Origin: Eledone cirrhosa
Lineage: Eukaryota
NCBI GenBank assembly: GCA_964016885.1
Contig: OZ024760.1
Location: 7,688,001 to 7,752,000, forward strand
Length of the DNA stretch: 64,000 bases
Direction: 5' to 3'
Part shown: positions 1,317 to 64,000 of the stretch, one piece after another
Layout of the letters: each line of letters starts with the position of its first letter
How positions within the stretch are numbered: the first letter of the stretch is position 1
The notes under the pieces: generated by a model
What the model was told of the DNA's origin: nothing
The model's database searches: none
The model's input: the letters and a program-made list of their open reading frames with translations, nothing else
Program-made: the position numbers and the translations under genes

Positions 1317-1361
1317 CACGTCTGTTGATGACTTTTTCAACTTGGTCCTATCAATTTTCAT
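1317..1361 (-). CDS. HUWE1: First coding exon segment of HECT E3 ubiquitin ligase HUWE1 (MKIDRTKLKKSSTDV). Whole exon is 1405-1317; the gene continues left of the window.
   Basis: Minus strand reads ttgttttgtttttag|AAACAC...CAAC ATG AAA ATT GAT AGG ACC AAG TTG AAA AAG TCA TCA ACA GAC GTG|gtaaga. Acceptor and donor are canonical and an in-frame upstream TGA fixes the start. The 15 aa match the HUWE1 N-terminus as recalled (human MKVDRTKLKKTPTEA). Confidence 0.88.
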
Positions 1362-31576: not shown

Positions 31577-32739
<1,163 letters not shown>

Positions 32740-33197
32740 ATGTAATAAACATCATACAATAATTATTTCATTGGTAAATGAAATAATTATCTTATGTTGT
32801 TTATTACTTAACTAAAAAGCTCTGTAGCCTACATAGAGCACTCTCTTTTCCTTTACCTTTCCCTCGGAAATACTTCATTCAATTATATATATATATACAT
32901 ATATATAAATAAATGCTAATAATAGTATTTATACTTATATATGAGTTATATACAATTATAAATATGGAAGGGTAGTATGCTGCACTACCTGGTTACCAAT
33001 AAGAGAAATATCTCAATGTAAATTATCAGATCTATTATTACAGAGCAGAAATACAAAATATAAAACAATCAAATTTTTGCTTAATACATTTAATTGCTGA
33101 CGATCGTTTCTTCCAGACAACTGTATGATATCATCAGAGTTTACACAATGTTTAAACAAGTAATTACAATCCTAGTCTCTTTATATATATATATATA

Positions 33198-40203: not shown

Positions 40204-40838
40204 TTTTCAGATGCAGGAGGGCGCTATAGAAGTGGTGGATAGCTTCCGGTACCTAGGAGATCAGATTAGCATGGGAGGAGGGTGTTCCGAGGCCATAGTA
40301 TCTAGAATAAGGACGGGTTGGAAGAAGTTTAGGGAGCTGCTTCCTCTGTTGATGAAGAAGCGTTTCTCCCTGCGTACGAAAGGCCGGTTGTATGATGCCT
40401 GTGTGAGGAGCACGATGCTGCATGGTAGTGAGACATAGGTAGCAACTGCAGAGGATATACGACGGCTGGAGAGAAATGAGGCAAGCATGCTCCGTTGGAT
40501 GTGCAGTGTAAATGTGCGTGAACGACCCAGCATAAATGTGTTGAGAGAGAAACTGTGTCTGAGAGGGATAGACTGTAGTGTACGGGAGAGGAGACTGAGG
40601 TGGTATGGACATGTGATGCGCATGGAGGATGACCGATGGGTGAAGAAATGCCAGGAAATGCCAGTTGAAGGAAGACGTGGTAGAGGTAGACCACGAAAGA
40701 CATGGGCGGAGGTGGTGAGAACAGACCTCAGATCATTGAAGCTCATGGTAGAGATGACGAAGGACCGTGACGAGTGGAGAGATGCTGTGCTGAATAAGAC
40801 CCGTCCCACCCTTGCAAGCAGGGAAAAGCGGACGTAAA

Positions 40839-40870
<32 letters not shown>
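40204..40870 (+). mobile_element. 5'-truncated RTE LINE
   Basis: [16 protein letters not shown]...TLASREKRT* followed by (ATG)n; one in-frame stop; closely similar to the 31.6-32.2 kb copy. Confidence 0.92.
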
Positions 40871-41499
40871 ATGGTGTATATATCAGTTGCCATGCAACTG
40901 GTGCCAAGTTGTATCACCCATTGCTTTTCCCTTGGACAACATCAGTGGCGTGGAGAGGGAAGATTGGTATGCATGGGTGACTGCTGGTCTTCCACAAACA
41001 ACCTAGCCTGGACTTGTGTCTCGGAGTGGAACTTTCTAGGCACAAATCCCATGGTCATTCGTGACCGAAGGGGCTCTTTAGCCCTTACCCGTTATATACA
41101 TATATTTATATATTTCACTGGCCATGGTGAGCCTGCTGGAAGATTGCTCTGCTTGACTCCATATGCAAAGAAATCAGTTGGCTGGCTGTATATTCCCTTC
41201 CAAACAATCACGAAGATGGACACATGCCCCAAAGGAACAAATCTGCGTGCTGACAGATGACTCTGGAGCTTAATCTTTGTCTACACCATACAACTGATTT
41301 AAGGCATCAGATGTCTCCCATCGGGTGCTAGGACAAAATTATGAATCTTCCTAATTTTGTCCTAGTGCCCGATGAGAGACCAGTAATGAAGCAATTCTTC
41401 CACTATACAGTGGTGGCCATAAATGGACCCCAAAACTTAAGGTCACAGATACATGTTAAGTGTTTGAAACTTTATCATCATTATCACCATGTTACGTCC

Positions 41500-42806
41500 A
41501 TTCTTCCAAATTAGATGAGATGCAGTTTAGTTTTGTGCCTGGGAAAAGTACAACAGATTCCCTCTTCTTAATGAGACAATTACAAGAGAGGTTCTTAGAG
41601 AAGAATAAGCCACTATACTTACCTTTTGTTGACCTAGAGAAGGCCTTTGATAGAGTACTCCGATCTGTCATCTGGTGATACCTAAGGAAACTAGGTGTAG
41701 AGGAATGGCTTGTGAGGACAGTGCAAACTATGTACAGAGGTGCTGTCAGTTTAGTGAGGAATTCCAGATACAAGTAGGAGTACATCAGGGTTCAGTCCTC
41801 AGCCCGCTCTTGTTCATTATAGTTTTCCAAGCCTTAACAGAGGAGTTTAAGACTGGCTGCCCATGGGAACTTCTCTATGCTGACGATCTGGTTCTTATAG
41901 CAGAATCATTAGAGGAGCTAGAGATTAAATTCTGGCTATGGAAACAGCAGTTGGAATCAAGAGGACTGAGAGTGAACCTAGCTAAGACTAAAGTGTGGAT
42001 AAGTAGAAAAGAGGACAAAACTCTGATTCCATCAGAGAAATGGCCATGTTCGATATGTAGAAAAAGAGTTGGCATAAATTCTATAGAATGTACACAATGC
42101 AGATCTTGGGAACACAAGAGATGTAGTGGGATAGCAGGCAAACTAACAAGTAGGGAAAACAACATATGCAGTAGATGTTCAGGGAAATTTGACGGTAGAA
42201 GTCACAGTGATAGACACATTTTTCAAATGCAGGTAGGATCTATAGAGCTGGTTGATAGCTACCAATACCTAGGCGATCGGATTAGCAAGGGAGGAGGGTG
42301 CTCCGAGGCCACAGTATCTAGAATAAAGATGGGCTGGAAGAAGTTTAGAGAGCTGCTTCCTCTGTTGACAAAGAACGAAAAAGCTGGTTATGTGATGCCT
42401 GTGCGAGATGTGCGCTGATGCATGGTAGTGAGGCATGGGCAGCAACTGCGGAGGATATGTGACGGCTGGAGAGAAATGAAGCAAGCATGCTCCGTTGGAT
42501 GTGCAATGTCAATGTGTGTGAACGATCAAGCATAGATGAAATGAGAGAGAAACTGCGTTGGTATGGACATGTGATGCACATGGAGGATGACCGCTGGGTA
42601 AAGCAGTGCCAAGAAATCCCAGTAGAAGGAAGGCGCAATAGAGGAAGACTACAAAAATCATGGGCGGAGATGGTGACAGCTGACCTCAGATCGCTGAAGC
42701 TCACGGAGATGACAAAGGACTGTGACAAATGGAGAGATGCTGTGCTGAATAGGACCCATCCCACTCTTGTAAGCAGGGAAAAGCAGAAGTAAAATGATGA
42801 TGATGA
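41500..42806 (+). mobile_element. RTE LINE fragment with reverse transcriptase core (disrupted)
   Basis: QFSFVPGKSTTD, FVDLEKAFDRV, GVHQGSVLSPLLF, LLYADD, PHD-like finger and 3' tail; contains stops and deletions. Confidence 0.93.
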
Positions 42807-42815
42807 TATATATAT

Positions 42816-42941
42816 ATAGGAACGAGTAGGACCCCGACGGCTGAGCTCAAGCCGTTTCGACGGCTAATTCTGGACATTTTAGTCCAGAATTAGCTGTCGA
42901 AATGGCTTGAGCTCAGCCGTCGGGGTCCTACTCGTTCCTAT
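42816..42941. repeat. Palindrome with 60-bp arms and a 6-nt loop at the end of a dispersed repeat (second copy 45900-46010)
   Basis: Arms 42816-42875 and 42882-42941 differ at 2 positions. Confidence 0.92.
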
Positions 42942-52495: not shown

Positions 52496-53527
52496 ATACA
52501 CTTATACAAATGGAAGTTCAGTAGAATCGAAGCTCTAGCTGCGGCCAAGCTAACGAATGCAATCTGGAATGTGCAGCTAAGCACTCAATAAGGTAGTTTC
52601 ACCTTAGAGTAATAACATACGTTTAGACAGCTTGACAAATTGAAGACTGGCATAAACTTGTGGTGAGCCAGCCGCAAGGACCAAATACTTGTATAAATAA
52701 CGAGTTAGGGAAAAACATCGATCGTTCATTTTATTTTGAACCATTTTCATTTCACATTTGAAAAGAGGGTACTAGCCCTGAAATATCATATTGAAATATA
52801 CTGAGTAAAACATTATTTTGTTTTGTTTTATTTGTCATCCGCTACCCTTTATATATTTCTACCACATTGTACTGGGTTTCTGAAACTTAGCCATTTATTA
52901 TTAATACATATCTCACAATACTTCAAAAATGTTTAATCTTTTTTTTTTAATTGTCTGTATTTTTGTCTTTCCAGAGTGTTCCTGGCAGTGAATGATCCAG
53001 TTTTATGGAATCAAATATTTTTTAATATTTAAAGAAAAGAAAAAAGAAAACTTCACAAGACTCCATTGACTTCAGTAAAAAATAAAAGTTGGCCAAATAC
53101 TTCTGAGAAGCTGGTGCTATCAGGCTCATACGCACACTAACATACTCATACATTTATACACGTATACTCATACACACACTCTCACAGTTAACATCTGAAA
53201 GAAAGAAAGAATAAGTCTGTTTTTTATGTTTGCTAGTAGTTGAGGTTCTACTGCATCGCTGTCCAATGTCAACTGTTTCATGTCCTTCCCTGTTACAGCC
53301 TTCATCATAATGCTGCTCACAAAATGGTTGGCATCAGTGAAGTAATTTGGTTATTGGCTTTGCACCCCATCTGTACTGTCAGAACTTTTTGAAGTGGAGA
53401 GAAAGAGAGAGGAGATTTTAATTTGTTAGCTTAGTTTGGAATTCCTTGTGTGTCATGTTTCTAGTTGGTGAATCATTTTAACTTGTGTGGCTGGGGGGAA
53501 AAAAACAACTTTGTTTGTTTTGTAAAA

Positions 53528-54652
53528 ATGGACCCGACAAGAGACATTGCCAAAGCAGAGATGTCTGCCAACATCTTGGAAATTCCGTTTGATCTGAAGA
53601 TGAGTTCTAGCCGGACAATTCGGTCGAATAAGACCGCAGCAAATAACTTCCGGGAATATCTGAGGGAGAAAGGATTCAATCAGAAATTCGAAAACTTTGA
53701 TGTACCAACATTGAACAAAAGTCTTGGAAATTTCTACATCGATGCCAGGCAAGCCGATGGCACTCACTACAAAGTGAATTCCTTAGAGAACTTCCGATAT
53801 GGGCTGAACCGTTATTTGAGGTCAGCTCCCTATTTTCGAAAAATTGACATCATCAAAGATAATGAGTTTTGCGATGCTAATCAGTTTTTTAAGGCGGCGA
53901 TCATGGAATTGAAAAGACTTGGCAAAGGTGATGTGGAACATCACCCTGTGATAACAAACCCTGATCTTAAGTCCCTGTATGAGTCTGCTTACTTCGACCC
54001 GACTACACCAGCTGGATTACTGAATAAGGTTCAGTTTGACATACGCATGTATTTCTTTCGCCGAGGAATGGAAAACATGTCGAAGATGACGAAGTCGACG
54101 TTTGCCGTCATGAAGGATCCAGACTCTGGCTTAAAGGTCGTCATCAAAGTCGATGAGTTTGGGTCTAGTCCGAAAGAGAACCAGTCTGAGAGTATAACCG
54201 GAGTTATGCCGGAGTCGGTCGGCAGCCGTATGTGTCCGGTGAAGTCGTTTCAACTGTACCTGAGCAAACTGCATCCAGACTGCGACAGACTCTGGCAGAG
54301 GCCCAGGGAGAACTCGTTCTTTGATGACGACATCTGGTATTGTAGGTCTGCTGTCGGTGAGAAAAACTTGGCCAAATTTATGTCTGGCCTGAGTAGGACT
54401 TGTTCTTTGTCCAGGACGTATACCAACCATTCTATACGAGCAACAGGGGCAGCCATACTACGTAAATACTTTGAATCAAATATGATAATGGCTGTAATGG
54501 GACAGAAGTCGGCTTCCTATCTGTCTGGCTATCAACGTATTAGCAACAAAGACAAGATCTTTATGGGTCAAGCAATAACTGAAAACCTTTGCAGTGCTGG
54601 GTCGTCATCTGCGGAGAACTCATTTGCAGACGAGGAGAAGAACACGCAGCAG
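53528..54652 (+). CDS. Crypton-derived tyrosine-recombinase-fold (DUF3504; KCTD1/KIAA1958/ZMYM/QRICH1-like) protein, first coding exon, 375 codons
   Basis: The only long, uninterrupted, non-repetitive ORF in the window. Start context aaaaATGg. Motifs FY-x-DAR-x-x-DG-x-x-YK, GLNRYL, YFFRRGMEN, CPVKSF-x-x-YLSKLHP, LWQRP, WY, YTNHSIRATG and MGQKS-x6-Y. Phase-0 donor CAG|GTAAGG at 54652. Confidence 0.87.
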
Positions 54653-54769
54653 GTAAGGACGGATCTCTTTTATAGAATGTGCAAATTGTTGGTCACCTTT
54701 ATATGCGTGTAGTTATATGTAATTCCTGTGAAGGTGTGTGGCTGAGTGGTTAGTGTTGGACTCACGATC

Positions 54770-55250
54770 ACAACCTCCACTACCAACACCACCACCACCA
54801 CCACCACCACTAACAACAATACCAACACCACCACCACCATCACTAACAACAACACCTACAGCACCACCACCATCACTAACAACAATACCAACACTACCAC
54901 CATCACTAACAACACCACCACCACCACCATCACTAACAACAATACCAACACCACTACCACAACAGCACATCACCACCAACAACAGCAATATCAACACCAC
55001 CAACAACAATACCAACACCACTACCACAACAGCACATCACCACCAACAACAGCAATATCAACACCACCAACAACAATACCAACACCACTACCACACCAGC
55101 ACATCACCACCAACAACAACAATATCAACACCACCAACAACAGTACCAACACCAACAACCAGAACCTCCACCATTGTCATGGCTTCTACTAACGACACCA
55201 ACACCAACAACAGCATATTACCACCAATAACACCACCACCACCACCACAC
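54770..55250. repeat. (CAC/CAA)n compound repeat, intronic
   Basis: Directly visible; lies 3' of the 54652 donor. Confidence 0.9.
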
Positions 55251-55299
55251 TTACATTAACATGAATAAGGCTAAACAAACATCTACTGTTCAGACTATA

Positions 55300-55346
<47 letters not shown>

Positions 55347-55468
55347 TTCCTGATGATTTCCTTCGAATGAAACAGTTCTAGTCTTGTAGAAGCCATTTCT
55401 ATATTAAATATTTACACTCTGCTATGTATTGAGTACCTTACTTACTGTGGTTACCCCCAATTAAACCC

Positions 55469-55506
<38 letters not shown>

Positions 55507-55674
55507 GAGAGAGATAGTTTGTTCGCTTAACCTTCAGCATGCACTAGGTGCATTATGTCATGTCACCAGTAGAATAATCTCCCCTTAATACATAATGCAG
55601 TGTCAAGGAAAGCAATTCATAAAAAAATTCAGCTTGCTAAAGGTTAAAGTAAACTGAAAGATAGTCGACTATAC

Positions 55675-56200
55675 TGAGGTTGATAAAATAAAGTTCCAGT
55701 AATGCTCTGAGGTTGATTTAATCAGCTTTTCCCTCCCACCCCCGAATTACTGGTCTTGTGCCTAGATTAGAAACAATTTAAAAAAAATGAGAAATTATTA
55801 TTATTGGGCAGTGGATTGGAAGTTGTATCGGTAGAGCGTCTGACAACATACTTTGTGATCATGTAGTTAAGTCCCTTTATGTTTTCAGTTCAGATCCCAC
55901 CAATGTTAGCTTTGCCTTCCATCCCTCTGAAGTCGATAAAATAAAGTACCAGTAATGCACTGGGGTCGGTTTAATCGACTTTACTCTCCCCAAAAATTAT
56001 AAGTCAGAAACCATTTTTTAGTTTAAATCCCGTTGAGGTTAGCTTTGCCTTCCATCTTTACAGGGTTGATAAAATAAAGTACCAGGAATACACTGGGGTT
56101 GATAAAATAAAGTACCAGTAACACACTGGGGTTGATTTAATCGACTTTCCCTTACCCCCTAAATTGTTGACCTTGTGCCTAAATTAGAAACCATTAGTAT
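55675..56200 (+). mobile_element. tRNA-SINE cluster
   Basis: Repeated GATAAAATAAAGTACCAG...GTGCCTAAATTAGAAAC blocks. Confidence 0.75.
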
Positions 56201-56385
56201 TATTTATATTTTAAAGGAAGTATGTTTGGAATATGGCGAGCGAAGTTTTGAATTGAAAATAGAAAAAGAAGCTTCGCTTTAATATTTTGATTAAATTATA
56301 TAGTCTAATAATGGGGCATATAAACCCACCGAATGGAAAAAGATGGGTATCTTTTTCTATTTCAATTCCTATTTATATTTTACAG

Positions 56386-56464
56386 ACCACACCAACTACA
56401 TCTGAAAATTCAACAAAAACGTCATCACAGCTACAAAATTTTGGTCTCAGTGACTACACTAAAG
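56386..56464 (+). CDS. Second coding exon of the Crypton-derived gene (TTPTTSENSTKTSSQLQNFGLSDYTK-G)
   Basis: atttatattttacag| acceptor and AAG|gtaaga donor. 79 nt, open in phase 0 (matching the upstream donor), ends in phase 1. Confidence 0.72.
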
Positions 56465-56625
56465 GTAAGAAGTTAACCCTTTCAGGACCAAGAACATATT
56501 TATATTATCATCATCATCATCATCATCATCGTTTAACGTCCATCTTCCACGCTTGCATATATTTAAAAATAAAATTAGAATTTTATGTCTCGCCCGAGCA
56601 CAGGTGATACATAAATGTAAGTATG

Positions 56626-56665
<40 letters not shown>

Positions 56666-56676
56666 CATATATATAT

Positions 56677-57752
56677 ATCATCATCTTCATCATTTTATGT
56701 CCGCTTTTCCCTGCTTGCAAGGGTTGGATGGGTCCTATTCAACACAGCATCTCTCCACTTGTCACGGTCCTTCGTCATCTCCTCGGTGAGTTTCAGCGAT
56801 CTGAGGTCTGCTCTCACCACCTCCGCCCATGTTTTTCGTGGTCTACCTCTATTGCATTTTCCTTCTACTGGGATTTCTTGGCACTTCTTTACTCAGCAGT
56901 CATCCTTCATGTGCATCACATGTCCATACCATCTCAGCTTTCTCTCCTGCACACCACAACTTATCCCTCTTATACCCAGTTTCTTTCTCAACTCGTCTAT
57001 GCTTGGTTGTTCACGCACATTGGCATTGCACATCCAACGGAGCATACTTGCTTCATTTCTCTCCAGCCATCACATATCTTCTGCAGTTGCTGCCCATGTC
57101 TCACTACCATGCAGCATCACGCATCTCACACTTGCATCATATAACCGTCCTTTTGTAAGCAGTGAGAAACCCTTCTTTGTCAACAGAGGAAGCAACTCCC
57201 TAAACTTCTTCCAACCCGTCCTTATTCTAGATACTGTGGCCTCGAAGCACCCCCCCTCCCATGCTTATTTGATCACCTAGGTACCGGAAGCTATCAACCA
57301 CTTCTATAGAACCCACCTGCATTGGAAAAGTGTGTCTAACACTGCGATTACTAATGTCAACTTTCCCTGTATATCTACTGCATACGTAGTTTTCCCTACC
57401 TGTTAGTTTGCCTGCTATCCCACTACATCTCTTGTGTTCCCAAGATCTGCATTGTGTACATTTTATGGAATTTATGCCAGTTCCTTTCCTACATATCGAA
57501 CATGGCCATTTCCCTGATGGAATCAGAGTATTGTCCTCTCTTCTACTTATCAACACTTTTGTTTTAGCTATGTTCACTCACAGGCTTCTTGATTCCAACT
57601 GCTGTTTCCATAGCCAGAATTTATTCTCTAGGTCCTCTACTGATCTGCTATAAGAACCAGATCATCAGCATAGAGAAGTTCCCATGGGCAGCCAGTCTTA
57701 AACTCCTCTGTTATGGCTTGGAGGACTATAATGAACAAGAGTGGGCTGAGGA
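56677..57752 (-). mobile_element. 5'-truncated RTE LINE, antisense in an intron
   Basis: LSPLLF...WELLYADDL...KTKVL...WPCSIC...FRYLGDQ...3' tail. Confidence 0.92.
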
Positions 57753-58118
57753 GTAGTTAAAAAAAAAATTCCATTTCCTATTCTGCTAGTAGTAAAGAGA
57801 CATGGCTTAGTGGTTAAAGTGTTTGGTTCCTGGTCTAGGCTGTTGATTGTGTCCTTGATCAAGACTCACTTTTTCCTGATGCTCCAGTTAACTCAGCATT
57901 CAACTGTAAAAAAACAAACAAATACCAGTAACAGCTTGGGCTTAACTCTTCAATGGACCAGCACACTATCCAGGGGGTGGGAAGTCTTGTACTCTCAGTC
58001 ACGCAACCCTACACAGAATAAAGAAGCTATTTCAATTACTCCTTCTTTGGGGGAGGGATGCTACCGTTAAAAAAATGTTTTTACTTCAATTGCTTTTTTT
58101 TTTTTTTTTTTATTCTAG

Positions 58119-58210
58119 GGGCCAACCATTCAATGGATATACCTTTAAATCAGAGTCCTTGTTCTACAGACAACTCCTGGTTAAATAAAGAACTGTCAGC
58201 AAAGCTACAG
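58119..58210 (+). CDS. Third coding exon of the Crypton-derived gene (G-ANHSMDIPLNQSPCSTDNSWLNKELSAKLQ); no stop codon reached
   Basis: Poly-T tract plus attctag| acceptor and CAG|gtaaca donor. 92 nt, open when entered in phase 1 (G+GG=Gly), ends in phase 0. Confidence 0.72.
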
Positions 58211-58287
58211 GTAACACCTCAATACCTCCTACTCCTCTTATAGTCTAACAGCTTTTTCCTCTTCCTCTCTCTATATCCAGTCTATAC

Positions 58288-58597
58288 CAGTTCCCAAACT
58301 TTCTCTGGGCTGCATTTTCGAAATGAAAATTTGCTCGCGTCTCACCAAATTTTATGATAAAAAGTACATTTAACAATAAAAAACAACTAATAGTGTGTTA
58401 AATATAATATATAACATAAATAACTTATAATACGAAAGGTAAGAACTTGCTTTTGACCAGTAATTTCCTTTGTATTAGGTCTAATTTGAGATAAATTCTC
58501 ATCTCCTCATCTTTGGTTGTCTTTCAATCATTGCGCCTCACTTGCTATCCTCTTCTGCTGCACCTATGAGATGCGCCGCACCGTTTGGTAACCACTG
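58288..58597. mobile_element. hAT MITE
   Basis: CAGTTCCCAAAC ... GTTTGGTAACCACTG; flanks GTCTATAC/GTCTATTG. Confidence 0.65.
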
Positions 58598-58605
58598 GTC
58601 TATTG

Positions 58606-61600
58606 CCTCTACACCCCTCTCTATTTACAGTCTAACACCTCTACACCCCTCTCTATTTACAGTCTAACACCTCTACACCCCTCTCTATTTACAGTCTAAC
58701 ACCTCTACACCCTCTCTATTTACTGTCTAACACCTCTACACCCCTCTCTATTTACAGTCTAACACCTCTACACCCCTCTCTATCAACAGTCTAACACCTC
58801 TACACCCCTCTCTATCTACAGTCTAACACCTCTACACCCCTCTCTATTTACAGTCTAACACCTCTACACCCCTCTCTATTTACAGTCTAACACCTCTACA
58901 CCCCTCTCTATTTACAGTCTAACACCTCTACACCCCTCTCTATTTACAGTCTAACACCTCTACACCCCTCTCTATTTACAGTCTAACACCTCTACACCCC
59001 TCTCTATTTACAGTCTAACACCTCTACACCCTCTCTCTATTTACAGTCTAACACCTCTACACCCTCTCTCTATTTACAGTCTAACACCTCTACACCCTCT
59101 CTCTCTTACAGTCTAACACCTCTACACCCCTCTCTATCTACAGTCTAACACCTCTACACCCTCTCTCTCTTACAGTCTAACACCTCTACACCCCTCTCTA
59201 TCTACAGTCTAACACCTCTACACCCTCTCTCTCTTACAGTCTAACACCTCTACACCCCTCTCTATCAACAGTCTAACACCTCTACACCCCTCTCTATCTA
59301 CAGTCTAACACCTCTACACCCTCTCTCTATTTACAGTCTAACACCTCTACACCCTCTCTCTCTTACAGTCTAACACCTCTACACCCCTCTCTATCTACAG
59401 TCTAACACCTCTACACCCTCTCTCTCTTACAGTCTAACACCTCTACACCCCTCTCTATCTACAGTCTAACACCTCTACACCCTCTCTCTCTTACAGTCTA
59501 ACACCTCTACACCCCTCTCTATCAACAGTCTAACACCTCTACACCCCTCTCTATCTACAGTCTAACACCTCTACACCCTCTCTCTCTTACAGTCTAACAC
59601 CTCTACACCCCTCTCTCTATTTACAGTCTAACACCTCTACACCCCTCTCTCTATTTACAGTCTAACACCTCTACACCCTCTCTCTATCTACAGTCTAACA
59701 CCTCTACACCCTCTCTCTATCTACAGTCTAACACCTCTACACCCCTCTCTATTTACAGTCTAACACCTCTACACCCTCTCTCTATCTACAGTCTATCACC
59801 TCTACCTCCTCTCTATCTACAGTCTAACACCTCTACACCCCTCTCTATTTACAGTCTAACACCTCTACACCCCTCTCTATCTACAGTCTGGTCTAACACC
59901 TCTACACCCCTCTCTATTTACAGTCTAACACCTCTACACCCTCTCTATTTACGGTCTAACACCTCTACACCCCTCTCTATTTACAGTCTAACACCTCTAC
60001 ACCCCTCTCTATCAACAGTCTAACACCTCTACACCCCTCTCTATCTACAGTCTAACACCTCTACACCCCTCTCTATTTACAGTCTAACACCTCTACACCC
60101 CTCTCTATCTACAGTCTAACACCTCTACACTCTCTCTATTTACAGTCTAACACCTCTACACCCCTCTCTATTTACAGTCTAACACCTCTACACCCCTCTC
60201 TCTATTTACAGTCTAACACCTCTACACCCCTCTCTATCTACAGTCTAACACCTCTACACCCCTCTCTATCAACAGTCTAACACCTCTACACCCTCTCTCT
60301 ATCTACAGTCTAACACCTCTACACCCCTCTCTATTTACAGTCTAACACCTCTACACCCTCTCTATTTACAGTCTAACACCTCTACACCCTCTCTATTTAC
60401 AGTCTAACACCTCTACACCCCTCTCTATCAACAGTCTAACACCTCTACACCCCTCTCTATCTACAGTCTGGTCTAACACCTCTACACCCCTCTCTATTTA
60501 CAGTCTAACACCTCTACACCCTCTCTATTTACAGTCTAACACCTCTACACCCCTCTCTATTTACAGTCTAACACCTCTACACCCCTCTCTATCAACAGTC
60601 TAACACCTCTACACCCCTCTCTATCTACAGTCTAACACCTCTACACCCCTCTCTATTTACAGTCTAACACCTCTACACTCTCTCTCTATTTACAGTCTAA
60701 CACCTCTACACCCTCTCTATTTACAGTCTAACACCTCTACACCCCTCTCTATTTACAGTCTAACACCTCTACACCCCTCTCTCTATTTACAGTCTAACAC
60801 CTCTACACCCCTCTCTATCTACAGTCTAACACCTCTACACCCCTCTCTATCTACAGTCTAACACCTCTACACCCCTCTCTATTTACAGTCTAACACCTCA
60901 ACACTCTCTCTCTATTTACAGTCTAACACCTCTACACCCCTCTCTATCAACAGTCTAACACCTCTACACCCCTCTCTATTTACAGTCTAACACCTCTACA
61001 CCCCTCTCTATCTACAGTCTAACACCTCTACACCCCTCTCTATCTACAGTCTAACACCTCTACACCCTCTCTATTTACAGTCTAACACCTCTACACCCCT
61101 CTCTATTTACAGTCTAACACCTCTACACTCTCTCTCTATTTACAGTCTAACACCTCTACACCCTCTCTATTTACAGTCTAACACCTCTACACCCCTCTCT
61201 GTTTACAGTCTAACACCTCTACACCCCTCTCTATCAACAGTCTAACACCTCTACACCCCTCTCTATCAACAGTCTAACACCTCTACACCCCTCTCTATCA
61301 ACAGTCTAACACCTCTACACCCCTCTCTATCTACAGTCTAACACCTCTACACCCCTCTATTTACAGTCTAGCACCTCTACACTCTCTCTCTATTTACAGT
61401 CTAACACCTCTACACCCCTCTCTATTTACAGTCTAACACCTCTACACCCCTCTCTCTATTTACAGTCTAACACCTCTACACCCCTCTCTATCTACAGTCT
61501 AACACCTCTACACCCCTCTCTATTTACAGTCTAACACCTCTACACTCCTCTCTCTATTTACAGTCTAACACCTCTACACCCCTCTCTCTATTTACAGTCT

Positions 61601-64000
61601 AACACCTCTACACCCCTCTCTCTATTTACAGTCTAACACCTCTACACCCCTCTCTATCTACAGTCTAACACCTCTACACCCCTCTCTATCTACAGTCTAA
61701 CACCTCTACACCCCTCTCTCTATCTACAGTCTAACACCTCTACACCCTCTCTCTATCAACAGTCTAACACCTCTACACCCCTCTCTCTATCTACAGTCTA
61801 ACACCTCTACACCCCTCTCTATCTACAGTCTAACACCTCTACACCCCTCTCTCTATCTACAGTCTAACACCTCTACACCCTCTCTCTATCAACAGTCTAA
61901 CACCTCTACACCCCTCTCTCTATCTACAGTCTAACACCTCTACACCCCTCTCTCTATTTACAGTCTAACACCTCTACACCCTCTCTCTCTTACAGTCTAA
62001 CACCTCTAGACCCTCTCTCTATCTACAGTCTAACACCTCTACACCCCTCTCTATCTACAGTCTAACACCTCTACACCCTCTCTCTATCTACAGTCTAACA
62101 CCTCTACACCCCTCTCTATCAACAGTCTAACACCTCTACACCCTTCTCTATCTACAGTCTAACACCTCTACACCCCTCTCTCTCTTACAGTCTAACACCT
62201 CTACACCCCTCTCTATTTACAGTCTAACACCTCTACACCCCTCTCTATTTACAGTCTAACACCTCTACACCCTCTCTCTATCTACAGTCTAACACCTCTA
62301 CACCCTCTCTCTATTTACAGTCTAACACCTCAACACCTCTCTCTATCTACAGTCTAACACCTCTACACCCTCTCTCTATCTACAGTCTAACACCTCTACA
62401 CCCTTCTCTATTTACAGTCTAACACCTCTACACCCTCTCTCTCTTACAGTCTAGCACCTCTACACCCCTCTCTATTTACAGTCTAACACCTCTACCTCCA
62501 CCTCTCTCTATTTACAGTCTAACACCTCTACACCCCTCACTATTTACAGTCTAACACCTCTACACCCCTCTCTATCTACAGTCTAACACCTCTACACCCC
62601 TCTCTATCTACAGTCTAACACCTCTACACCCTCTCTCTATTTACAGTCTAACACCTCTACACCCCTCTCTATTTACAGTCTAACACCTTTACCTCTACCT
62701 CTCTCTATTTACAGTCTAACACCTCTACACCGTCTCTCTATCTACAGTCTAACACCACTACACCCCTCTCTCTATTTACAGTCTAACACCTCTACACACC
62801 TCTCTATTTACAGTCTAACACCTCTACACCCTCTCTCTCTTACAGTCTAACACCTCTACACCCCTCTCTATTTACAGTCTAACACCTCTACCTCCACCTC
62901 TCTCTATTTACAGTCTAACACCTCTACACCCCTCTCTATCTACAGTCTAACACCTCTACACCCTCTCTCTATCAACAGTCTAACACCTCTACACCCTCTC
63001 TCTCTTACAGTCTAACACCTCTACACCCCTCACTATTTACAGTCTAACACCTCTACACCCCTCTCTATCTACAGTCTAACACCTCTACACCCTCTCTCTC
63101 TTACAGTCTAACACCTCTACACCCCTCTCTATTTACAGTCTAACACCTCTACACCCCTCTCTATTTACAGTCTAACACCTCTACACCCCTCTCTATTTAC
63201 AGTCTAACACCTCTACACCCTCTCTCTATCTACAGTCTAACACCTCTACACCCTCTCTCTATCTACAGTCTAACACCTCTACACCCCTCTCTATTTACAG
63301 TCTAACACCTCTACACCCCTCTCTATTTACAGTCTAACACCTCTACACCCCTCTCTATTTACAGTCTAACACCTCTACACCCCTCTCTATTTACAGTCTA
63401 ACACCTCTACACCCCTCTCTATCAACAGTCTAACACCTCTACACCCCTCTCTCTATCTACAGTCTAATACCTCTACACCCCTCTCTATCAACAGTCTAAC
63501 ACCTCTACACCTCCTCCTCTCTCTCTTACAGTCTAACACCTCTACACCCCTCTCTATCAACAGTCTAACACCTCTACACCTCCTCCTCTCTCTCTTACAG
63601 TCTAACACCTCTACACCCCTCTCTCTATCAACAGTCTAACACCTCTACACCCCTCTCTCTATCAACAGTCTAACACCTCTACACCCCTCTCTATCAACAG
63701 TCTAACACCTCTACACCCCTCTCTCTATTTACAGTCTAACACCTCTACACCCTCTCTCTATTTACAGTCTAACACCTCTACACCCCTCTCTATCAACAGT
63801 CTAACACCTCTACACCCTCTCTCTCTTACAGTCTAACACCTCTACACCCCTCTCTATCTACAGTCTAACACCTCTACACCCCTCTCTATCTACAGTCTAA
63901 CACCTCTACACCCTCTCACTCTTACAGTCTAACACCTGTACACCCCTCTCTATTTACAGTCTAACACCTCTACACCCCTCTCTATCTACAGTCTAACACC
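58606..64000. repeat. Satellite of about 32 bp, at least 5.4 kb, runs off the window
   Basis: Unit ACCTCTACACCCCTCTCTAT(T/C)TACAGTCTAAC with CT-length variants. Confidence 0.98.

Follow-up and report, generated by a model that had tools for sequence, protein, structure and literature searches.

Regarding vertebrates, Kojima and Jurka (PMC3212892) describe six genes carrying a domesticated DUF3504 domain, which derives from the tyrosine recombinase (YR) of Crypton transposons, and all six have lost the tyrosine and the second arginine of its active site. One of them, KCTD1, has in its isoform b a Crypton YR/DUF3504 exon upstream of a BTB gene, so that DUF3504 is N-terminal and BTB lies downstream, and this is also the layout found in a 64,000-nucleotide stretch of Eledone cirrhosa DNA (hereafter the window; assembly GCA_964016885.1, contig OZ024760.1, positions 7,688,001 to 7,752,000). 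The window gene is a single-copy octopus gene with a Cre-like fold in its first coding exon (the head), probably captured from a Crypton. As in the domesticated genes of Kojima and Jurka, its DUF3504 domain stands within a longer conserved host protein; the pattern of decay differs from that of KCTD1 and the other vertebrate genes, as the head of the window gene has kept both the tyrosine and the second arginine.

The KCTD1-type protein (P0259) combines BTB_2 (PF02214) with the KCTD1-15_CTD, whereas the window gene has a BTB domain of PF00651 and lacks that C-terminal domain. The head is 55% identical to bivalve Crypton-type proteins and 38% identical to the KCTD1-type protein, and a shared head clade with KCTD1 was rejected by the approximately unbiased (AU) test (p=9.6e-5; one KCTD1-type sequence in a quick tree). 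Since the BTB class differs and a shared head clade is rejected, the head-plus-BTB layout arose twice, and the gene is no orthologue of KCTD1, one of the domestications listed in the first-pass annotation of this locus. The fold of the head is shared with the domesticated DUF3504 domains of QRICH1, WOC and ZMYM2-4, which are without the tyrosine and the second arginine; in QRICH1 the domain is at the C-terminus, while the window gene has an N-terminal, single-exon head. The WOC/ZMYM proteins carry MYM fingers.

The first coding exon opens with an ATG at 53528 and its frame is free of stops for 375 codons up to a CAG/GTAAGG donor after 54652; it matches the Pfam DUF3504 model at 35.9 bits (cut-off 29.7), in agreement with the annotation, which had described an intact DUF3504 exon ending at a consensus donor. 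The two small downstream exons proposed there were also recovered: they have AG/GT ends, chain in phases 0, 1, 0 without stops and match the Octopus bimaculoides protein XP_014773042.1 (P0141; Table 1), and they are therefore not chance splice signals. P0141, which shares a cluster with the 94%-identical P0002 and was reached through it, was matched to the window and 100 kb downstream, and this revealed exons 4-6. The predicted six-exon product has 974 amino acids (aa) and 0 internal stops, with five GT-AG introns in phases 0, 1, 0, 2, 0, and consists of the Cre-like head, a linker, a BTB domain and a low-complexity tail. The annotation had proposed a host gene that begins with a YR fold, continues with a Ser/Thr-rich linker and ends in a C-terminal part not visible in the window; this last part consists of the BTB domain (PF00651, residues 555-656 of P0141, 45 bits) and the tail. 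Apart from BTB, no Pfam family was detected in the C-terminal tail, which also gave no usable Atlas match, and zf-FCS had no match in P0141 at E<=0.1. Mollusc BTB and ZBTB clusters are among the structural neighbours (TM 0.76-0.86) of the Atlas model of the BTB domain. A polypyrimidine tract followed by AG is present at 52955-52975, ~550 nt 5' of the ATG; the first coding exon may be internal, its long 5' untranslated region being supplied by an upstream non-coding exon. The four read runs over the locus look like DNA, with no exon joints among those listed, and have no bearing on expression.

XP_014773042.1 is a direct orthologue, with all six exons matched and 864/974 residues identical to the predicted product. 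It is named 'putative uncharacterized protein' in RefSeq and 'BTB domain-containing protein' in UniRef, names that do not refer to a transposon origin. No paper was found for this accession, and no description of a cephalopod Crypton-BTB fusion was found among the literature matches listed, mostly main texts from outside the subscription journals; the gene itself was already modelled, as uncharacterised, in RefSeq.

Regarding other coleoids, P0118 (926 aa, 77% identical to the head) and P0119 (966 aa, 74%) are both DUF3504+BTB proteins and rank first and second among the 18 matches to this BTB, P0118 being aligned in a single stretch over residues 2-657. The 90% cluster of P0118 includes a Sepia pharaonis record, joined YR+BTB proteins of 926-927 aa on 24 and 103 Logan contigs, none longer than 4.6 kb, and unspliced forms reading through into introns; the joined forms on such short contigs are presumably transcripts of cuttlefish-type orthologues. 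The read-through form P0002 shows the same donor position as exon 1. In a 69-row tree (all trees quoted here are quick trees), the heads of the window gene, P0141, P0118, P0119 and P0135 form a clade with a Shimodaira-Hasegawa-like approximate likelihood ratio test (SH-aLRT) support of 100, and this clade falls within the bivalve-type Crypton proteins with a support of 95; smaller trees place the window head with P0141, P0118 and P0119, again at SH-aLRT 100, with weaker nesting. The fusion is present in Octopus and in cuttlefish-type records, and the capture is likely to have preceded the split between octopods and decapodiforms. That split dates to ~270 My.

In the searches made, the fused head turned up solely in coleoid-type records, in line with the suggestion of a cephalopod- or mollusc-specific fusion. 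Among 25 long or multi-stretch head matches chosen from the best 150 representatives, two have DUF3504 and PF00651 (O. sinensis LOC115220336 and P0176, for which see below) and one is of the KCTD1 type; no BTB was found in the long head matches of abalone, Littorina, oyster and arachnids, which is weak evidence for the absence of YR+BTB outside cephalopods. The databases also hold proteins that join DUF3504 to other domains (P0245, P0203, P0266, P0212, P0177), among them KRAB+YR, YR+MYM finger (from a spider and from scorpions) and YR+C2H2 (from a catfish); on these matches, Crypton capture seems commoner than the six genes described so far would suggest.

A search of the 3.0-Gb genome with the head protein, which gives a lower bound, examined 10 candidates and returned 8 matches. 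Apart from the window head itself, these seven matches share 31-48% identity with it, the next-best standing at 48%, and all have open frames. Three runs from a single sample, which may be the assembly's source sample, gave a DNA read depth of 7-13 over exon 1, as in unique flanks, while repeats reached 10^3-10^6. Regarding the traits of an active CryptonA, the head has the R-H-R-Y tetrad, but it has no multiple similar dispersed copies, is followed by five more exons with BTB rather than being a YR without a host domain, and lacks the catalytic Lys and the second His/Trp. Because the head is single-copy and the same head-plus-BTB fusion occurs in cuttlefish-type orthologues, this is a domesticated coleoid gene and not a live Crypton, as the annotation had argued; the absence of terminal repeats to which it also appealed carries no weight, since animal Cryptons have none, according to PMC3212892. 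Compared with O. bimaculoides, 10/331 residues differ in the head and 17/106 in the linker (Fisher p=1.1e-5, a protein-level contrast), which shows constraint on the head.

The AlphaFold model of the head, built from a 63-sequence alignment, has a Cre-like fold, with a mean predicted local distance difference test (pLDDT) score of 86 and a predicted template modelling (pTM) score of 0.78. The top Foldseek match was human QRICH1 in the Zincore-ZFP91-DNA complex (9HJT_H, E 1.4e-8), with Cre next; in VIA-align, Cre gave Z 17.3 and a root mean square deviation (rmsd) of 3.8 with 272 residues aligned and both lobes covered, and QRICH1 (9HJT_H) gave Z 13.7 and rmsd 18.1 with 252 aligned. Profile alignment to XerA anchors the H-x-x-R motif, the GH histidine and the tyrosine, and the head retains R179, E182, H301, R304 and Y335, with S213 at the position of the catalytic Lys and Q326 at that of the second His. 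Among 115 homologues, of which 72 span all five tested columns and 64 carry the tetrad, column 213 has Lys in 100 of the 106 with a residue there, Ser in octopods and Gly in cuttlefish-type sequences; the second-His column has His in 64/64 tetrad-complete homologues and Gln326 in the window gene and all orthologues. Lys and His are replaced in all orthologous sequences used (n=5: P0141, P0002, P0118, P0119 and P0135, from three 90% clusters). Homologues were taken as Crypton-type by size and complete sites. The Lys of column 213 is probably the general acid, as it is near-invariant and sits in the loop linking strand 203-207 to strand 226-228; a Lys has this role in the tyrosine-recombinase family according to PMC13465315 (for general background, see PMC8371274). 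The nearby K216 is not invariant, being N in P0119. The segment directly before the tyrosine (328-334) has pLDDT <50, and the model shows a long helix after the tyrosine. As judged from these columns, the head has a half-retained catalytic site, apparently caught mid-way in catalytic decay.

A genome search with this BTB gave 52 matches, and all Crypton-like YR heads found in the genome (8/8) stand upstream of a same-strand match to the BTB family: the window gene on C21, three on C4, one on C23, two on C11 (83-133 kb from the BTB) and one on C10. Head and BTB are joined in a database protein for six of the eight, namely P0141 (C21), P0123, P0143 and P0147 (mapped to C4), P0176 (85% identical to L003 of this genome) and P0230 (assigned to L007 by inspection); the other two are L004 and L006. 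None of the other heads (0/7) has the catalytic tyrosine, and the window head alone (1/8) keeps R-H-R-Y. The YR heads stem from several captures; one origin of all eight was rejected (AU p=1e-17) in a comparison of 11 head rows with 18 of the Crypton-type homologues, in which some branches were long.

The BTB family also bears THAP, CENP-B-type helix-turn-helix (HTH) and FLYWCH heads, and the acceptor is at the same place in the 18/18 BTB loci examined, at the end of a phase-0 intron that precedes a VHK-type motif; the window gene shares both this split and the transposon-type head upstream. The multi-head locus LOC106877732 / LOC115209932 (C4:234.67-234.78 Mb) has the same BTB family (57-60% identical to the window-gene BTB), the same intron before VHK and transposon-type heads in front, including the three mapped YR heads; unlike the window gene, it has many alternative heads (isoform numbers to X32) and its YR heads are tyrosine-less. 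Non-YR heads are also present there, as 4/9 of the non-YR isoform heads tested mapped within 140 kb, one with CENP-B-type Pfam matches. Further tandem clusters of genes of this BTB family were detected at C4:285.95-286.08 Mb (at least 6 second-exon matches) and C4:297.95-298.33 Mb (at least 4), with L023, L027-L034 and L036. A separate, intron-split DUF3504 gene, a putative WOC, is present on C26, and another, in a single exon with a 617-codon frame, at L059 3732-5582 (C11:4119732-4121582); the latter, which may be KIAA1958-like, has no BTB match within the surrounding 20 kb.

Drosophila mod(mdg4) and lola, like this BTB family as a whole, combine BTB with varied DNA-binding modules, although their variable part is C-terminal and their TTK-type BTB arthropod-specific (PMC11426971), whereas in the window gene it is N-terminal and apparently a single head. 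Mukherjee and Moroz (PMC10027918) described Octopus THAP and CENPB factors that carry BTB/POZ, as the transposon-head family does; the main text of that paper has 0 mentions of Crypton, DUF3504, tyrosine recombinase or isoform, and BTB is treated there as part of the transposon.

Taken together, we consider it probable, at about 0.7, that the head-BTB protein acts as a non-cutting two-lobed DNA clamp, dimerised through BTB, with transcription or chromatin as its target. That the protein binds DNA, dimerises and regulates would follow from what is known of the families (PMC3212892; PMC11426971), and a ZBTB-type homodimer of the window protein through an N-terminal extension is putative. Before the split of octopods and decapodiforms, a Crypton would have inserted in front of a BTB gene, and a phase-0 donor would have arisen behind its open reading frame; the head would then have lost the general-acid Lys and the second His, keeping both clamp lobes and the phosphate-binding R-H-R. 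Through BTB, two clamps would form a dimer, or the window head would associate with a different head from this BTB family, and the tail may recruit co-regulators. The presence of THAP, CENP-B-type HTH and FLYWCH heads on the same BTB family, together with the loss of the tyrosine in the seven other YR heads, points to selection for binding and not for catalysis, and the retained tyrosine would most simply have a structural role or be left over in the capture that has eroded least.

Several observations weigh against this clamp. R-H-R-Y and E182 are all retained, and residues 321-340 around Y335 are invariant at 17/20 positions in the window and five orthologous sequences, which places them among the best-conserved blocks; on this alignment, such conservation exceeds what a dead site strictly needs. 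An 85-column BTB tree leaves the window gene and P0118/P0119 in an open fork, with the window gene beside P0151 at 86, and the linker exons are unalignable with cuttlefish (10/26, 5/31 and 14/49 when forced), and the head is therefore the main ground for whole-gene orthology with P0118/P0119. The Octopus orthologue is itself a predicted model.

Alternatively, the head could chiefly dock to proteins as a co-regulator, much as QRICH1 does in Zincore, and engage DNA-bound zinc-finger factors without reading sequence itself, which we regard as unlikely. Cephalopods have a large expansion of C2H2 proteins, and the best Foldseek match is the QRICH1 chain of 'Zincore (SEPHS1:QRICH1) binding to ZFP91 on DNA' (9HJT_H), but identity is 16-17%, Cre fits better by VIA-align, and the head is much nearer to the bivalve Crypton-type proteins than to the KCTD1-type protein. 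Zincore is cited in PMC13538652 and PMC13383152.

It is likewise unlikely that the domesticated recombinase has residual, slow or partner-assisted chemistry, such as nicking, topoisomerase-like relaxation or use of Y335 in trans, with BTB replacing or reinforcing synapsis. The replacement of Lys, the described general acid of the family (PMC13465315), and of the second His in every orthologue, the variable K216 and the poorly modelled segment before the tyrosine stand against such chemistry, whereas R179-H301-R304-Y335 and E182 are kept in octopod and cuttlefish-type orthologues, in one of eight genome heads, with the long helix after the tyrosine and the strongly conserved Y335 block; a similar option was raised for a bird ATF7IP exon by Kojima and Jurka (PMC3212892). 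In its boldest form, a coleoid-wide, BTB-oligomerised tyrosine recombinase still performing DNA chemistry via R-H-R-Y among otherwise non-catalytic transposon-head BTB regulators, this proposal is slightly less likely still. A recent or live Crypton insertion with an accidental or mispredicted splice to BTB exons would suit the single-exon YR, the intact tetrad, the 55% identity to catalytically complete bivalve Crypton-type proteins and the predicted status of the Octopus model, but is extremely improbable given the single copy, the shared donor position in P0002, the joined proteins on short Logan contigs beside read-through forms and the His-to-Gln change common to octopods and cuttlefish-type records.

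This locus represents an independent Crypton domestication outside vertebrates, which has converged on the layout of KCTD1 although its BTB is of another class. It also exemplifies a wider pattern in cephalopods, in which Crypton-like heads that do not form one clade stand upstream of one BTB family. The contribution of the locus is a tetrad-retaining head, Lys- and His-less and conserved across coleoids. As it is closest to intact Cryptons and mid-way in catalytic decay, this head is a good test case for the role of the DUF3504 domain and for which residues go first as a recombinase turns regulator. Should chemistry survive, this would be a host-encoded animal tyrosine recombinase that could nick, relax or rearrange the DNA of its host.

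Table 1. Features of the window and its downstream extension (identities are to XP_014773042.1)
Feature	Position	Strand	Content
Coding exon 1	53528..54652	+	Crypton-derived tyrosine-recombinase (DUF3504) head, 375 codons; 359/375 identical
Coding exon 2	56386..56464 (79 nt)	+	Ser/Thr-rich linker, phase 0 to 1; 21/26
Coding exon 3	58119..58210 (92 nt)	+	Linker, phase 1 to 0; 27/31
Intron 3	58211..64000, runs past window end	+	32-bp minisatellite from 58606
Exon 4	C21:7752335-7752483 (extended window numbering 64335-64483)	+	Linker; 41/49
Exon 5	C21:7753091-7753367 (65091-65367)	+	Acidic stretch and first BTB part; 86/93
Exon 6	C21:7757391-7758593 (69391-70593)	+	Remaining BTB (PF00651), tail, stop; 330/400
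Likely first coding exon of HUWE1	1317-1361	-	Probable start codon at 1361
Decayed LINE-type fragment	31803-32762		Assigned by translation likeness
Decayed LINE-type fragment	40264-42863		RVT_1 matches within 41460-42415
Decayed LINE-type fragment, intron 2	56621-57753		Translation likeness; very high copy by read depth

At this locus the gene seems, from its sequence, to be single-headed. No second head was detected upstream of exon 1 by Pfam in 150 of the 205 complex frames of at least 60 aa (the 55 omitted being mostly satellite, LINE, intronic or YR-overlapping) or by tblastn with 17 known heads over the window and 20 kb, searches that short or divergent heads could escape, and among the matches to this BTB no protein pairs another head with it. 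The sole match above the cut-off in the 150 upstream frames was a partial RVT_1 at 41654-42415, a second RVT_1 piece in another frame at 41460-41675 being below it, which agrees with the earlier description of nearby transposable elements as decayed.

Regarding the neighbouring gene, the exon presumably belonging to HUWE1 was assigned by an N-terminal motif that we take to be characteristic, and DUF908 (C21:7679877-7680029) and HECT (C21:7587199-7590065) lie on the same strand. HUWE1, which the annotation had named for a synteny check, adjoins the YR-BTB gene; the two are divergent (head-to-head) and 52 kb apart.

Intron 3 is filled by the minisatellite from 58606 to 64000 and on to C21:7752334, with about 166 copies in the window; the array amplifies the acceptor junction of exon 4, which recurs in each unit together with the first exon-4 bases. 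Of the 166 ACAG/TCTAAC junctions counted, solely the last opens into in-frame exon 4, and ~165 decoy 3' splice sites lie ahead of the real acceptor.

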